A stretch of 64,000 bases of DNA from Sulfolobales archaeon. GTDB lineage: Archaea; Thermoproteota; Thermoprotei_A; Sulfolobales; NBVN01. The stretch lies in assembly GCA_038841535.1 (NCBI GenBank), contig JAWBTQ010000004.1, positions 38,271 through 102,270 on the forward strand. The letters are read 5' to 3'. The notes beneath the pieces were generated by a model. It saw nothing but the letters and a program-made list of their open reading frames with translations, was not told the DNA's origin and ran no database searches. The position numbers and the translations under genes were made by a program. The stretch's first letter is position 1; every line of letters begins with the position of its first letter. This document shows, in pieces, positions 28,835-32,068 of this stretch.

Positions 28835-30133
28835 TTAGCAGACTTTAAACATCCTCCTAATGTCGCTTAACTTAGTTACTCTCTCTTGGAATATCGCGCT
28901 AAATCTCTTTTTGTTACTTAATGGCTGTCCTCCACCCATTAAGCAGCCACCAGGACATACTTCAAACACTGGTAGACTCTTTTCATTTCGAAAGCTCGTG
29001 AGGTTGGCAGGAGGGTATACCTTAGTAACCTCTCTCTGCCTAAGGACTACGTAATCGGGGTATTCATCAGTTAGCGTATCGTAGTTAAGTTTCTTGAGAG
29101 CTATCTGCGCTTCCCGCGCAGTCAGCACTCTTGGGAGTACTCTTTTCCAAGATAGGCACTGAGTGATATAGACTACTCCAGGTGGTATGTTTAGCTTGGG
29201 CTCGATAGCTTTAACTCCAGGTGCTAAAGTTTGAAGTATCTTTTTCTCGGCTAGCGACCTAGCTACTATCACTTCCTCAGTTCTTAAATCGACTTCAGCA
29301 AGTGGGTCGTATACCGTGACCCTTTCGAATCCGATAGCCTTGAGTCCGCAAATGACCTTAAGCGGGTCTAGTCCCTCAGCTTCCGATAAAGAAGCTATGA
29401 CCTCGGGCTCTACGTACGCCTCAGATACGTGTCCTCTTCTAATTTCAGCGAGTACTTTATCTACATCTAAGCTGTACGTAATGGATCCAGCAGGACAGTA
29501 TGCAGCACAGAGTCCGCAGTAAACGCAGCCGGACTTTCTGAAGGGTTCTCCATAAGGTGTTGAGACTAAAGTCTCTATACCTCGGTTAACGTAGTTAAGT
29601 ACCTTAGCCCCGATCTTCGAGCATATTTCAACGCACCGTCCGCACACAAAGCACTTAAGCTGGTCGAACTTCATTAACTCGTCCTCTATCACTTGACCTC
29701 CTCGCTCGATATAACTAAATCTTTTCTCACTAACTATCCACTTAAGCCCTGCCGCTATCTTCTTAATTAATTCAATAACTTCTGATGGCTGAGCCGGACA
29801 GCCTCTTACGTAGCAATCTACCTTAACATGGCTACTCACAGGTTTTGACAGACCTAGAGCTCCTTGTACGCCTCCTAGACATGCGCAACTACCTAGGGCT
29901 ACCAAGACCTTTGCTTTGCTTCTAACTCTGTGGAGTAGCTCGAGGTCTCTCCCGCTCAGTACCGACCCCTCGACTAAGGCTACATCAACGTCATCGACTT
30001 CTTTACCTATTCCAGCTAGCGGCCAGTAAGTTAGTGAGATGTCGTCTCTCTCTAAAAGGTCGGCAAACTCTTTGCTCACCAAGTTGTACTGACAGCCATC
30101 GCAGCCAGATAGGGCCACGATCGCAACCTTCAT
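28835..30133 (-). CDS. Fusion protein: [NiFe] small-subunit N-terminal (proximal-cluster) domain + 2x[4Fe-4S] ferredoxin + degenerate [FeFe]-hydrogenase H-domain
   Basis: Residues 1-135 carry CDGC, GSCACLGG, GCPAQP. Then come CFVCGRCVEICS and CVYCGLCAAYCP. Then Fe_hyd_lg_C-like blocks follow: YVEPEVIASL, LKAIGFERV, ITQCLSWK, VLTAREA, FEVCPGGCLMGGGQP. Confidence 0.85.
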   Translation of the reverse strand: MKVAIVALSGCDGCQYNLVSKEFADLLERDDISLTYWPLAGIGKEVDDVDVALVEGSVLSGRDLELLHRVRSKAKVLVALGSCACLGGVQGALGLSKPVSSHVKVDCYVRGCPAQPSEVIELIKKIAAGLKWIVSEKRFSYIERGGQVIEDELMKFDQLKCFVCGRCVEICSKIGAKVLNYVNRGIETLVSTPYGEPFRKSGCVYCGLCAAYCPAGSITYSLDVDKVLAEIRRGHVSEAYVEPEVIASLSEAEGLDPLKVICGLKAIGFERVTVYDPLAEVDLRTEEVIVARSLAEKKILQTLAPGVKAIEPKLNIPPGVVYITQCLSWKRVLPRVLTAREAQIALKKLNYDTLTDEYPDYVVLRQREVTKVYPPANLTSFRNEKSLPVFEVCPGGCLMGGGQPLSNKKRFSAIFQERVTKLSDIRRMFKVC

Positions 30134-30140
30134 TAATCTA

Positions 30141-31412
30141 TCACCTCACTTTAACGACGTGAACGGCACACGGGATACACGGGTCGTAAGCTCTAACGAG
30201 CGCCTCTATGTACTTCTGTATAGTTGAATCACTAGCGCCTTCAGCGAGAAGTTCTTTGGCTATAGAGGTTGCGGACAGCTCTACGTGCTCTGTATTCATG
30301 ACTGTCGGAGTAGCTATATCAGCCCTAACGACTTTTAGGTCTTTATCTACCTCGTAGTAGTGTATCAGTAACCCTCTCGGAGCTTCCACAACACCTAGAC
30401 CAGCTGACGCACATCTCGTAGTAGCCGGCTGTAGCTCTAGGTCTCTAGATGAAAGCTCACTGACGTCTTGAACTATGGAGTCGAACATCAGCTTCGATTC
30501 TATTGCTTTAGCGTAGATGTTGGAGTAGGGGTTTTCTTTAAGCTTTTTCTCAAAGCTAGCCACAACACCTCTAGTCTCACCGTCGAGTTCGTTGTACTCT
30601 AGTGCACTTAAGAGTCTAGCTCTAGCTCCAACGTAAAACGGGTAGCCTAAGAATAAGCACTTTTTGCTACTAGAGTACTCAACGTGTAGTTCGTTAAAGA
30701 GCTCTCTATAGTTCTCTAAGGTAGTAGCGAACCTTCCAGTAGGTGTATTTAAGCTGTAGGGCTGGCCTCTTGGGACAGTGGACCTAGTAGACCCCGATAG
30801 AGCAACGTACCTAGGTGATGGGTCTCTAGAGTTCGGAAGCTCGATGTCTAGCACTCTCTCTGTGAAGCCCTCGAGGTGGGGCCGCACGGATTTTAGTAGC
30901 TCAAGTGCTGACATGAATACTCTACGGCTGACGTCGGATAGGAACCTCCCCATAGAGTAGTTATTGGGTGACGTAAGTCTGCCGCATACGAGCTTAATGA
31001 CCTTGTTTAAGTAGGTGTTGATCTCTAGAGACTTCTTCGCGAGCTGCTCAGAAGCTTCCCTACTTAAGTAGTCCGGTAGCGCTAGAACCCCTAAGTGAAT
31101 TACGTGGTTCTGAATAAAGCTCAGCTTATTGCATACGTCCCTCAATCTGACAGTGTCTTCAGAGGCTTCTACCCCTGCGATTTGCTCAACAGCTAAAGAC
31201 GCTGCCCAGAAATGGGGGTGGCTACACACTCCGCAGATCCTTGAAGCTATAGCTGGTACTTCACTAACTTTCCGCCCGATGACTAAGTTTTCGAATCCTC
31301 TCAGGCTTGCTACTGAGCTATACGTGACTCTCGCAGAGCCGTCGTATATCAACACCTCTACCTTGGACTCACCGGCCACTCTAGGTATTTCCCAGCTTAG
31401 TGACTTACTCAT
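30141..31412 (-). CDS. [NiFe] hydrogenase large subunit (group 3, NAD(P)-linked type)
   Basis: RICGVCSHPH and DPCIPCAVH motifs; only a 5-aa C-terminal extension (VVKVR). Confidence 0.9.
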   Translation of the reverse strand: MSKSLSWEIPRVAGESKVEVLIYDGSARVTYSSVASLRGFENLVIGRKVSEVPAIASRICGVCSHPHFWAASLAVEQIAGVEASEDTVRLRDVCNKLSFIQNHVIHLGVLALPDYLSREASEQLAKKSLEINTYLNKVIKLVCGRLTSPNNYSMGRFLSDVSRRVFMSALELLKSVRPHLEGFTERVLDIELPNSRDPSPRYVALSGSTRSTVPRGQPYSLNTPTGRFATTLENYRELFNELHVEYSSSKKCLFLGYPFYVGARARLLSALEYNELDGETRGVVASFEKKLKENPYSNIYAKAIESKLMFDSIVQDVSELSSRDLELQPATTRCASAGLGVVEAPRGLLIHYYEVDKDLKVVRADIATPTVMNTEHVELSATSIAKELLAEGASDSTIQKYIEALVRAYDPCIPCAVHVVKVR

Positions 31413-32068
31413 GGTTTACCACCCTTCGTGACTACCTCCCTTAGTCTCTCGGGTAGATTGCTCCAGAAAAACTTCATAGTAGCCTCGATCTCCTTTACGT
31501 CTATTCTATACCTCCTGTATAGCTCCACTGTAGCGTCTTCCCAAATCCTTGAGTCACTTAAGTACCCCCGACACCCCACACACGGAGCTCCGTAGCGAGG
31601 GCATTCAGCAGAACAGCCGGCGACAGTCAGAGGTCCTAAGCACGGCTCACCCTTTGTGATGAGGCATTCATCCCCTATGAGTGGGCACTCAGAGCACACC
31701 GGTAACCCTTCGATACCTAGCTGCTTCGATACTTCGAGTAGGGTACAGTTCGACTTCCTTATGCAGCTCCAGCACTTGACTCTATGTGTCGATAGCAGTA
31801 GCTCTAGGTTGGTCCTTCTATACCTAGTGAGCTCATCACCTTCCGTCACTATTTTAGCTTCCTCAGATACCGGGAACCTACATGAGGGAACGACTCTCCC
31901 GTTAACTAGGACTACGCATATTCTACAAGTAGCTTCCTCGAAGAGTCCCTCGAGATAGCAGAGTACGGGGACTCTAAACCCAGCCTTCTCAACAGCATCT
32001 ATTACGAAAGCGTTTCGTGGTACCTCTACCCGTACGCCATTTACGTAAACTCTAACCGCGTCCACCAT
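31409..32068 (-). CDS. Fusion protein: HydA/NuoG/HoxU-type N-terminus (2Fe-2S + His-ligated 4Fe-4S) + [NiFe] small-subunit C-terminal (medial/distal cluster) domain
   Basis: [15 protein letters not shown]..C (2Fe-2S) and [14 protein letters not shown] (HxxxCxxCxxxxxC). Then [42 protein letters not shown] follows, collinear with the delta subunit of the neighbouring operon. Confidence 0.85.
   Translation of the reverse strand: [219 protein letters not shown]

Follow-up and report, generated by a model that had tools for sequence, protein, structure and literature searches.

How a [NiFe] hydrogenase could be assembled when the two domains of its small subunit are encoded by genes that flank the one for the large subunit is the question raised by a locus in Sulfolobales archaeon DNA (contig JAWBTQ010000004.1 of assembly GCA_038841535.1, positions 38,271 to 102,270; the whole 64,000-nucleotide stretch is referred to here as the window). 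The locus consists of five close-packed minus-strand genes, hydC, hydB, hydD, hyhL and a hyhS/hydA fusion, running from 34400 to 28835. A sequence-only reading of this DNA had proposed that the small subunit is split, and all of the coordinates and sequence strings cited in that reading were found on the minus strand of the window. An archaeal hybrid group F [FeFe]/group 3f [NiFe] hydrogenase with the composition HydC-HydB-HydD-HyhL-HyhS/HydA was described by Greening et al. (2024, Cell; PMC11216029). The five products of the window probably form one soluble, multi-subunit enzyme of this hybrid lineage that is built on a Bfu-type NAD(P)H/ferredoxin module, in which the small subunit and HydA are cross-split, H2 is activated only at the [NiFe] site, and electrons are bifurcated. 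The features of the locus, with lengths in amino acids (aa), are as follows.

33852..34400, minus strand: hydC, 182 aa according to the open reading frame (ORF) call, with an uncertain start that overlaps hydB by 41 nucleotides (nt); NuoE/HoxE-like thioredoxin-fold [2Fe-2S] subunit (Pfam 2Fe-2S_thioredx, E = 7e-42; NCBIfam HoxE/NuoE below curated cut-offs)
32072..33892, minus strand: hydB, 606 aa; NuoF-like subunit for flavin mononucleotide (FMN) and NAD(P)H, Bfu type, with a C-terminal 2x[4Fe-4S] domain (Pfam Complex1_51K, SLBB, NADH_4Fe-4S and two Fer4)
31709..32068, minus strand: hydD residues 1-120, HydA/NuoG N-terminal half (Pfam Fer2_4 and NADH-G_4Fe-4S_3)
31409..31708, minus strand: hydD residues 121-219, [NiFe] small-subunit C-terminal domain with medial and distal [4Fe-4S] ligands and a helical tail
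30141..31412, minus strand: hyhL, 423 aa; [NiFe] large subunit (Pfam NiFeSe_Hases)
29729..30133, minus strand: hyhS/hydA fusion residues 1-135, [NiFe] small-subunit N-terminal domain with the proximal [4Fe-4S] (Pfam Oxidored_q6, E = 4e-22)
29459..29728, minus strand: fusion residues 136-225, linker and HydA-type 2x[4Fe-4S] ferredoxin domain
28835..29458, minus strand: fusion residues 226-432, reduced HydA H-domain remnant

The hydB and hydD genes are separated by 3 nt, the hydD stop and the hyhL start overlap by 4 nt, and 7 nt lie between hyhL and the fusion gene.

A small subunit and a HydA scaffold divided between two polypeptides

The alignments and profile matches confirm, at the level of domain assignment, that HydD is a HydA/NuoG N-terminus fused to the medial/distal domain of a group 3b-type [NiFe] small subunit. 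The N-terminal half contains the Pfam domains Fer2_4 (residues 4-75) and NADH-G_4Fe-4S_3 (residues 84-120), and aligns with residues 6-128 of HydA1 (7q4v_A, E = 2e-19) and with positions 1-119 of the 571 in NCBIfam FeFe_hydrog_A6 (E = 1e-29). Ligands for a [2Fe-2S] cluster (C37, C48, C51, C63) and a His-ligated [4Fe-4S] cluster (H95, C99, C102, C108) are present in this half. Residues 121-219 have no Pfam match, and in particular no match to a Fer4 family. Residues 122-215 align with the intact delta subunit of a separate group 3b sulfhydrogenase encoded in the window (48% identity across the Cys block, E = 2e-11), with residues 161-254 of the solved Pyrococcus/Thermococcus sulfhydrogenase I (SHI) delta subunit (E = 5e-20), and with positions 164-257 of 261 in NCBIfam sulfhyd_HydD (E = 4e-22). 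When the last 99 aa of HydD were searched alone, SHI delta 161-254 was recovered at E = 8e-21 and MvhG-type subunits at E = 1e-6 to 2e-5; only [NiFe] small subunits fell below E 0.5, and no ferredoxin, HoxU or NuoG chain was matched by these 99 aa even at E <= 10. The block contains eight Cys residues assigned to the medial and distal clusters (C125, C128, C135, C143, C152, C156, C163 and C166), all of which are present in 61 of 61 homologues, while the HydD cluster ligands as a whole are kept in 60-61 of the 61. HydD therefore carries ligands for four clusters, two in its HydA/NuoG-like half and two [4Fe-4S] clusters of the small-subunit type. The identity of the C-terminal domain rests on sequence and profile evidence, as the top 50 Foldseek matches of the HydD model (pLDDT, the predicted confidence score, of 76 and low in the Cys-rich stretch) all cover the NuoG/HydA N-terminal domain (including 7t2r_A and 8a6t_A).

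The 432-aa fusion protein supplies the complementary pieces. Its N-terminal domain matches Pfam Oxidored_q6 at residues 11-125, is 34% identical to delta residues 4-154, and matches MvhG (5odc_E, E = 4e-17), SHI delta (E = 2e-13), and positions 1-93 of NCBIfam ShyD (E = 5e-19). The proximal [4Fe-4S] ligands C11, C14, C83, and C112 are conserved among homologues. Beyond this domain, fusion residues 138-282 align with HydA1 123-272 (E = 2e-20), and residues 392-414 were aligned by HMMER to the HydA L3 motif. The eight Cys residues of the ferredoxin domain (C161, C164, C167, C171; C203, C206, C209, C213) are all present in 54 of 54 sequences. A single chain thus carries an N-terminal group 3 small-subunit domain and a C-terminal HydA homologue, and the top Foldseek hits of the fusion protein are FeFe hydrogenases and MvhG.

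The two halves of the small subunit rejoin without a seam. A virtual small subunit made from fusion residues 1-135 and HydD residues 122-219 aligns with residues 4-209 of the intact delta as a single colinear segment (E = 7e-34) with no gap at the junction. The delta breakpoint is narrow, with sequence up to about residue 154 found on the fusion protein and sequence from about residue 160 found on HydD. Similarly, positions 1-119 of FeFe_hydrog_A6 lie on HydD and positions 136-268 onward lie on the fusion protein. The [NiFe] small subunit is thereby shown to be divided, as judged from its encoded domains, over two polypeptides, with the proximal N-domain on the fusion protein and the medial/distal C-domain on HydD; by the same kind of evidence, a HydA-like scaffold is shown to be cut at one point and divided between the same two polypeptides. 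Ligands for about nine Fe-S clusters in the two polypeptides are conserved across about 50 species; four clusters are assigned to HydD, and the fusion protein accounts for the proximal cluster, a pair of ferredoxin-type clusters, and a possible cluster in the remnant. The matched split of the small subunit and HydA is confirmed to lie far beyond chance.

These results uphold most of what the sequence-only reading had claimed. The proximal-cluster domain is indeed the N-terminus of the 432-aa protein, the medial/distal domain is the C-terminus of the 219-aa protein and pairs Cys-for-Cys with the intact delta, and the alignments proposed against group 3 small subunits and HydA placed each half in its assigned family. 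The description of the arrangement as a reciprocal domain swap also stands, in the form of two chimeras that join the HydA N-half to the small-subunit C-domain (A_N-S_C) and the small-subunit N-domain to the rest of HydA (S_N-A_C). The remaining halves had been read as the N-terminal and C-terminal halves of a HydA-like protein; FeFe_hydrog_A6 and HydA1 support this domain assignment, but the H-domain is reduced and degenerate and is not an intact catalytic domain. Three points fall outside that reading: the published archaeal hybrid hydrogenase (PMC11216029), the Bfu-type NuoF/NuoE partners, and the loss from the H-domain of a cubane-ligating Cys and of large segments.

The partner subunits are consistent with a working [NiFe] site on a bifurcating core. 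HyhL contains the metal-binding motifs RICGVC...H and DPCIPCAVH, such that both RxCGxC and DPCxxCxxH are intact, and among solved structures it comes nearest to group 3b alpha subunits (5yxy_A, 6e-37; 9nez_D, 1e-35), ahead of MvhA, HoxH, and Acetomicrobium mobile HydL. Residues 18-606 of HydB align with solved Bfu B subunits (9bov_B, 1e-199; NfnB 9n5u_B, 5e-199; A. mobile NiFe-HydB 7t2r_B, 2e-190; FeFe-HydB 7q4v_B, 2e-186), and these matches cover the C-terminal 2x[4Fe-4S] domain, in which the two Fer4 matches fall at residues 551-603. The near-full-length alignment of HydB and the 2Fe-2S_thioredx match of HydC place the pair with BfuB and BfuC, that is, with a NuoF core carrying the extra N-terminal and C-terminal 2x[4Fe-4S] regions and a NuoE-like subunit.

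Two other accounts of the split domains have been considered. The sequence-only reading had conceded that it would fall if the C-terminal Cys block of HydD proved to be an ordinary HoxU/NuoG 2x[4Fe-4S] ferredoxin domain, in which case the locus would be a plain group 3d HoxEFUYH operon. The NuoE-NuoF-NuoG-like context does resemble Hox operons and NCBIfam HoxU matches HydD residues 7-120, but the HoxU, NuoG, and HydA matches all end at about residue 120, the block contains no CxxCxxCxxxCP motif in addition to lacking a Fer4 match, and the HoxU-type ferredoxin domain sits instead on the 432-aa protein. Because the block searched alone matches only [NiFe] small subunits below E 0.5, this challenge fails; the ferredoxin account is refuted by the isolated-domain searches of the HydD C-block and of the fusion ferredoxin domain and retains a negligible probability. 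A more substantial proposal is that the small subunit is not functionally split at all, the 432-aa protein being a complete FrhG-style small subunit, with the proximal cluster and a ferredoxin-type medial/distal pair, and the HydD C-domain an additional relay that sits at another place in the complex. FrhG (6qgr_G) does align over fusion residues 2-224 (E = 3e-13), as does NCBIfam FrhG over residues 2-215 (E = 3e-14). The ferredoxin domain taken alone, however, best matches residues 124-214 of bifurcating FeFe HydA (7p5h_A, 7e-17; 8a6t_A, 2e-15) and runs colinearly into the H-domain, while FrhG is absent from the best 60 of the 78 chains that this domain matches at E <= 0.01; an FrhG-type origin of the ferredoxin domain was rejected on these grounds. 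Furthermore, the C-domain of HydD is, tail included, a genuine small-subunit domain of the 3b type, and hydD lies immediately upstream of hyhL in all lineages that have a large-subunit gene in the operon, as in the delta-alpha order of group 3b. The methods of PMC11216029 likewise state that the HydD cofactors were placed using 7T2R chain A together with a small subunit, 5ODC chain E. An FrhG-style small subunit is accordingly considered unlikely, and division of the small subunit between HydD and the fusion protein is favored.

The reduced H-domain and the proposed electron path

The remaining question is whether the HydA-derived end of the fusion protein is a second catalytic site. One reference is a 571-aa relative, P0065, which aligns with Thermoanaerobacter kivui HydA1 across the whole H-domain and contains the motifs L1 (FTSWCPS), L2 (VTPCIVHK), and L3 (YPCFRGCLTGGGQ); the next gene is NuoE-like, and the contig ends just after it. 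Comparison with P0065 and with the fusion proteins of two further metagenomic loci, L011 and L009, reveals that the cubane-ligating Cys of L1 is replaced by Ser in every Thermoproteota-type fusion (Ser293 here), within a motif xSxAE...YP whose spacing is identical to that of CPSA...YP. The neighboring proton-relay position has no Cys in any Thermoproteota-type sequence. The fusion protein keeps the L2 Cys326 and an L3 of the form C393-PGG-C397-LMGGGQP, and these three remnant Cys residues are present in 51-54 of 54 sequences. Where L3 is present, it follows L2 after 66-76 residues versus 128-130 in full H-domains, such that roughly half of this segment is lost; in all, two large deletions take about 70 residues from the H-domain. 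The window's 203-residue remnant has no Pfam hit at E <= 10, including to Fe_hyd_lg_C, which matches P0065 at 4e-22 and the L011 fusion at 5e-24. In Thermofilaceae, L3 is degraded or absent and the operon is kept. The remnant is nonetheless predicted with confidence to adopt a HydA-like fold: the AlphaFold2 model has a mean pLDDT of 87, and its best Foldseek hits are FeFe hydrogenases (E down to 2e-15). As a separate observation, the relatives that retain the L1 cubane Cys (L011/L012, 5280-7013; L009/L010, 1123-2628; P0065 in L005/L006) have Trp at the proton-relay position, reading SWC or AWC versus the canonical SCC.

A dual-site hybrid, with catalysis both at the [NiFe] site and at an H-cluster housed by the 432-aa protein, as proposed for Thermoplasmatota group F, would fit the gene set and fusion architecture that the locus shares with the published hybrids, one of which evolved H2 upon artificial maturation (PMC11216029). 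It would also account for the conservation of the L2 Cys and of CPGGCxxGGGQP in L3, and for a remnant that is confidently folded like HydA. Against it stand the Ser at the first cubane ligand and the missing proton-relay Cys in all Thermoproteota-type sequences, the two deletions, the undetectable Fe_hyd_lg_C domain, and the persistence of the operon in Thermofilaceae despite a lost or degraded L3; the absence of HydE/F/G-like genes among the window ORFs scanned adds a little weight on the same side. On balance, a functional H-cluster appears improbable. The locus has the architecture of group F, yet the predicted ligands depart from it in one defining feature, as a true [FeFe] catalytic subunit has the full set of H-cluster-ligating Cys residues and both the L1 Cys and the adjacent Cys are absent here. 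The most economical reading is that the remnant is a vestigial domain that would bind at most a simple [4Fe-4S] cluster (Cys3-Ser). With its H-domain reduced in this way (Ser at L1, the deletions, and no Fe_hyd_lg_C match), the enzyme probably is a bifurcating hydrogenase of the Bfu type that works through [NiFe] only.

Homology to complex I, to 3b/3c hydrogenases, and to the enzyme of known structure from A. mobile allows an electron path through such a [NiFe]-only enzyme to be proposed. The HydD C-domain and the fusion N-domain would reassemble beside HyhL to form an ordinary three-cluster wire, and H2 would be split at the [NiFe] site only. Electrons would pass from the proximal cluster on the fusion protein to the medial and distal clusters of the HydD C-domain, and then to the His-ligated [4Fe-4S] of the same HydD chain. 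From there, the hub [4Fe-4S] of the fusion ferredoxin domain would relay them to the [2Fe-2S] of HydD and on to the [4Fe-4S]/FMN of HydB, where bifurcation to NAD(P)+ and ferredoxin would take place; the reverse reaction, confurcation, would produce H2. The second ferredoxin cluster and the H-domain remnant, with at most its Cys3-Ser [4Fe-4S], may form a dead-end side branch like A4/A5 in A. mobile NiFe-HydABCSL. In that enzyme, the path runs S1-A3-A2-A1-FMN and the A5 [4Fe-4S] replaces the H-cluster (PMC8880783, PMC9304861). Each cross-fusion would thus join domains that are neighbors in the assembled wire, and both could have arisen from one ancient rearrangement, the present gene order being a later permutation.

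Several points weigh against this interpretation. HMMER gave no direct alignment of fusion residues 283-391 to a solved HydA, and the L1 assignment was reached by multiple alignments through intermediates. The remnant retains L2 and a well-conserved CPGGCxxGGGQP that is clearly under selection, which makes some cofactor binding or a non-standard H-cluster possible in principle. The proposed docking of S_N with S_C and the order of the clusters draw on homology and on a relative's published model, and bifurcation is suggested by the similarity of HydB and HydC alone. Finally, the proposed rearrangement history is tentative, the only tree being a rough neighbor-joining one that has no support values.

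Gene order in relatives and genomic context

A gene-order scan covering one genome per GTDB species identified the locus in about 50 archaeal metagenome-assembled genomes (MAGs). The taxa include Sulfolobales sensu lato (with Desulfurococcaceae, Zestosphaera, Ignisphaera, and Pyrodictiaceae), Thermofilaceae, Wolframiiraptor, Bathyarchaeia, and one Archaeoglobales bin, and about 50 Thermoproteota species share both chimeric proteins. The complete order hydC-hydB-hydD-hyhL-fusion is found at 36 loci, a further 9 are cut by the end of the contig after hydD or hyhL, and at 6 loci (the Bathyarchaeia type) hydD is followed directly by the fusion gene without a large-subunit gene between them. The HydD homologues are 211-226 aa in length and all have both domains, down to 49% identity; some, about 97% identical to the HydD of the window, are from hot-spring MAG contigs labelled Thermoproteota or Sulfolobales archaeon. 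The two-domain architecture of HydD is rare: when 1.84 billion representative proteins were searched with a profile, both domains were seen in only four full-length clusters (at 50% identity), to which one C-terminal fragment can be added. One other high-scoring protein in that search, P0083 (1405 aa), is a duplicated formate-dehydrogenase-like protein that matches the NuoG-like N-half only and was set aside as irrelevant. Public annotations of these proteins include '2Fe-2S iron-sulfur cluster-binding protein', 'sulfur carrier protein ThiS', '4Fe-4S binding protein', 'hypothetical protein', and 'F420-reducing hydrogenase gamma subunit', and no NCBIfam model reaches its cut-off.

Comparison of orthologous loci, which the sequence-only reading had put forward as a route to the order of fusion and fission events, yields a mixed picture in which the two chimeras are conserved and the flanking layout is lineage-specific. 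At L011, the order is hydC, hydB, fusion (577 aa, with a full-length H-domain), hydD, hyhL. At L009, the fusion gene (501 aa) comes first, followed by hydC, hydB, hydD, and hyhL; its H-domain is partly shortened but still above the Pfam Fe_hyd_lg_C threshold. The HydB proteins of these two loci also differ, with 413 aa and no Bfu extensions at L011 and 1052 aa including a GltD-like fusion at L009. What is conserved across lineages is the pair of chimeras and, wherever the operon keeps a large-subunit gene, the position of hydD immediately upstream of hyhL. A large-subunit gene flanked by the two small-subunit halves is peculiar to the Thermoproteota-type clade. The sequence-only reading had also entertained a permuted [NiFe] module inserted into a HydA gene; this fits the local gene order but is unsupported as history, because relatives with larger H-domains have the fusion gene upstream of hydD or ahead of hydC, and one Bathyarchaeia clade has no intervening large-subunit gene. 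The L011 and window orders are cyclic rotations of each other; as a conjecture, both could stem from a single crossover between hydA and a small-subunit gene, one of them by way of a circular intermediate.

The six Bathyarchaeia-type loci (L045, L047, L048, L053, L054, and L061) have gaps of about 100 nt or less between hydD and the fusion gene and keep all aligned Fe-S ligands; L045 stops short of L3, and for L053 and L054 the alignment does not cover the first two proximal positions. At three of these loci, the neighbors are genes for an 825-aa HdrA/MvhD fusion and for MvhG- and MvhA-like proteins. In the neighbor-joining tree, the six form one clade nested among loci that contain a large-subunit gene, which suggests that this gene was lost secondarily in the Bathyarchaeia clade. 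Two loci cluster outside the groups to which their bins are assigned: L029 (JASFYJ010000002.1, the Archaeoglobales bin) groups tightly with L056, and L024 (JAWBJM010000068.1, a Pyrobaculum bin) with L063, both being Desulfurococcaceae-type. Either mis-binning or recent transfer could explain their placement.

The hybrid [FeFe]/[NiFe] hydrogenases came as a surprise when reported in 2024. It is conceivable, though somewhat short of probable, that most Thermoproteota hybrid loci, that of the window among them, represent a sister lineage that has gone unrecognised. In it, an ancient hybrid would have seen its [FeFe] half decay to a vestigial, perhaps Cys3-Ser [4Fe-4S], domain, leaving a [NiFe]-only bifurcating hydrogenase that arose independently of the bacterial NiFe-HydABCSL; on the same tentative account, the A_N-S_C and S_N-A_C chimeras would record the single crossover between a small-subunit gene and hydA that founded all hybrids. 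If this is true, hidden Markov model screens for [FeFe] catalytic domains would miss such enzymes. Because the H-domain is decayed in most of the Thermoproteota members, surveys of H2 cycling should leave them out of the [FeFe] hydrogenase count. Through them, one machine can also be compared in naturally occurring dual-site and single-site versions. A cluster wire shared by two chimeras, with the distal domain on the same chain as the His-ligated cluster of the HydA scaffold and so covalently linked to it, provides a concrete and testable electron path. The variant gene orders and the large-subunit-less Bathyarchaeia form could help to reconstruct the entanglement of the two hydrogenase families.

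Two features flank the operon:

24770-28721, minus strand: complete group 3b sulfhydrogenase operon, distinct from the hybrid genes and downstream of them, encoding beta (362 aa), gamma (275 aa), delta (256 aa) and alpha (424 aa)
34489..35385, minus strand: 298-aa protein directly upstream of hydC with an N-terminal AbrB/SpoVT domain (Pfam MazE_antitoxin/AbrB; NCBIfam AbrB-family domain)

The sulfhydrogenase operon is separated from the five-gene cluster by a 113-nt AT-rich spacer. Origin of the hybrid genes by recent duplication of the adjoining 3b delta and alpha genes was ruled out, the identities being 30% for the large subunit, 34% for the small-subunit N-domain, and 48% for the Cys block. 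At about 10 related loci, a 3b-type pair of small- and large-subunit genes lies within 7 kb (<=7 kb), mostly with beta/gamma-like genes and in varied orientations, which suggests a recurrent 'hydrogenase island'. In 29 related loci, a homologue of the AbrB/SpoVT protein directly adjoins the hybrid operon, whether upstream of it, divergent, or downstream, and this conserved adjacency makes the 298-aa protein a candidate dedicated regulator of the operon. The 10-mer GTTATACTTA occurs three times on the minus strand of the window (28780-28789, 34480-34489, and 4287-4296) versus 0.26 expected, and none of 100 shuffles reached three. Two of the copies sit in AT-rich spacers, one ahead of the sulfhydrogenase operon and the other ahead of hydC, about 60-80 nt 5' of the respective start codon, and the 10-mer may be a shared promoter or operator element. 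A molybdopterin-dependent dehydrogenase set (16806-23019) lies a few kb from the hydrogenases and comprises a 781-aa large subunit, a 300-aa flavin adenine dinucleotide (FAD) subunit, a 152-aa ORF (16806-17264), and an XdhC-like maturation factor (22147-23019), accompanied by an amidohydrolase. Pfam scans of 20 neighboring window ORFs revealed no Hyp, endopeptidase, or HydE/F/G genes.

Comparison with known systems

Among established hydrogenase types, the group 3b sulfhydrogenases (Pyrococcus furiosus SHI, PDB 9NEZ; 24770-28721 in the window) are closest to the small-subunit C-domain, including its helical tail, and to the large subunit, and the adjacency of hydD and hyhL mirrors the delta-alpha gene order. 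The group 3b delta is, in contrast, a single polypeptide with beta/gamma partners, in place of the NuoE/F/HydA-like partners found here. The hybrid proteins fall outside group 3b, with 30-48% identity to the neighboring 3b genes and matches far below NCBIfam cut-offs, and beta and gamma subunits (Fer4_22; FAD/NAD-binding) are found only in the neighboring operon. Group 3d HoxEFUYH has an intact HoxU, whose one chain carries the [2Fe-2S], His-[4Fe-4S], and 2x[4Fe-4S], and a short HoxY; in the window, the similarity to HoxU is split between HydD 7-120 and fusion 138-220, and HoxY and HoxH are weaker matches than 3b/3c subunits. FrhG (PDB 6QGR) shares the linear architecture of fusion residues 1-225, in which a proximal domain is followed by a 2x[4Fe-4S] ferredoxin domain. 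Unlike in FrhG, the ferredoxin domain of the fusion is HydA-derived and continues into the H-domain remnant.

The HydABC enzymes (Thermotoga maritima 7P5H, T. kivui 8A6T, Acetobacterium woodii 7Q4V) provide the template for the other half of each chimera. The HydD N-half and the fusion C-half together reproduce the HydA order of [2Fe-2S], His-[4Fe-4S], 2x[4Fe-4S], and H-domain, and the HydB and HydC of these enzymes are close homologues of those in the window. Unlike HydABC, the HydA of the window is interrupted by small-subunit domains and by the large-subunit gene, and its set of H-cluster ligands is incomplete. A. mobile NiFe-HydABCSL (PDB 7T2R; PMC8880783) and the Bfu family (PMC9304861) resemble the window in that a [NiFe] module is wired via an H-cluster-less HydA scaffold to a HydB/HydC bifurcating core, and in that the H-cluster site holds at most a simple cluster. 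However, A. mobile HydA is a single 692-aa polypeptide and its HydS is a 179-aa, proximal-only subunit, whereas the scaffold of the window is cut and its halves are each joined to one part of a small subunit with three clusters; the locus thus has neither a single-chain BfuA nor a separate proximal-only HydS. Additionally, the large subunit is nearer to group 3b than to A. mobile HydL, and the HydA pieces are nearer to true FeFe HydA than to A. mobile HydA.

The closest counterpart is the published hybrid. In PMC11216029, HyhL, HydB, HydC, and the 'conduit' HydD with its four clusters are described as encoded next to one another, the same set that is found at 28835-34400 on the minus strand, and that study reports hybrids from Thermoproteia and Bathyarchaeia among others, with 21 group F genomes. 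Among the papers that the literature search covered, none besides PMC11216029 mentions 'group 3f' or links group F with a small-subunit fusion. By predicted gene content and architecture, the locus of the window matches the published hybrid type, and its fusion protein is similar to P0065 and to the fusion proteins of L011 and L009. The shared features are the five-gene content, the small-subunit N-domain fused to a HydA-like C-terminus, the HydD of about 220 aa with four clusters, and the NuoE/NuoF-like partners. The main text of PMC11216029 calls HydD NuoG-like and credits the three [NiFe] relay clusters to the fusion protein; the split of the small subunit is real, under-described, and at most implicit in the main text and methods. 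The form with a reduced H-domain (about 50 Thermoproteota species) and the form without a large-subunit gene look like variants that are not spelled out in the main text. The window and these species differ from the published hybrid in an H-domain that lacks the first cubane Cys, is much shorter, and escapes detection by Fe_hyd_lg_C, and the 606-aa Bfu-type HydB of the window differs from the GltD-fused HydB of the Thermoplasmatota hybrid enzyme modelled in PMC11216029.

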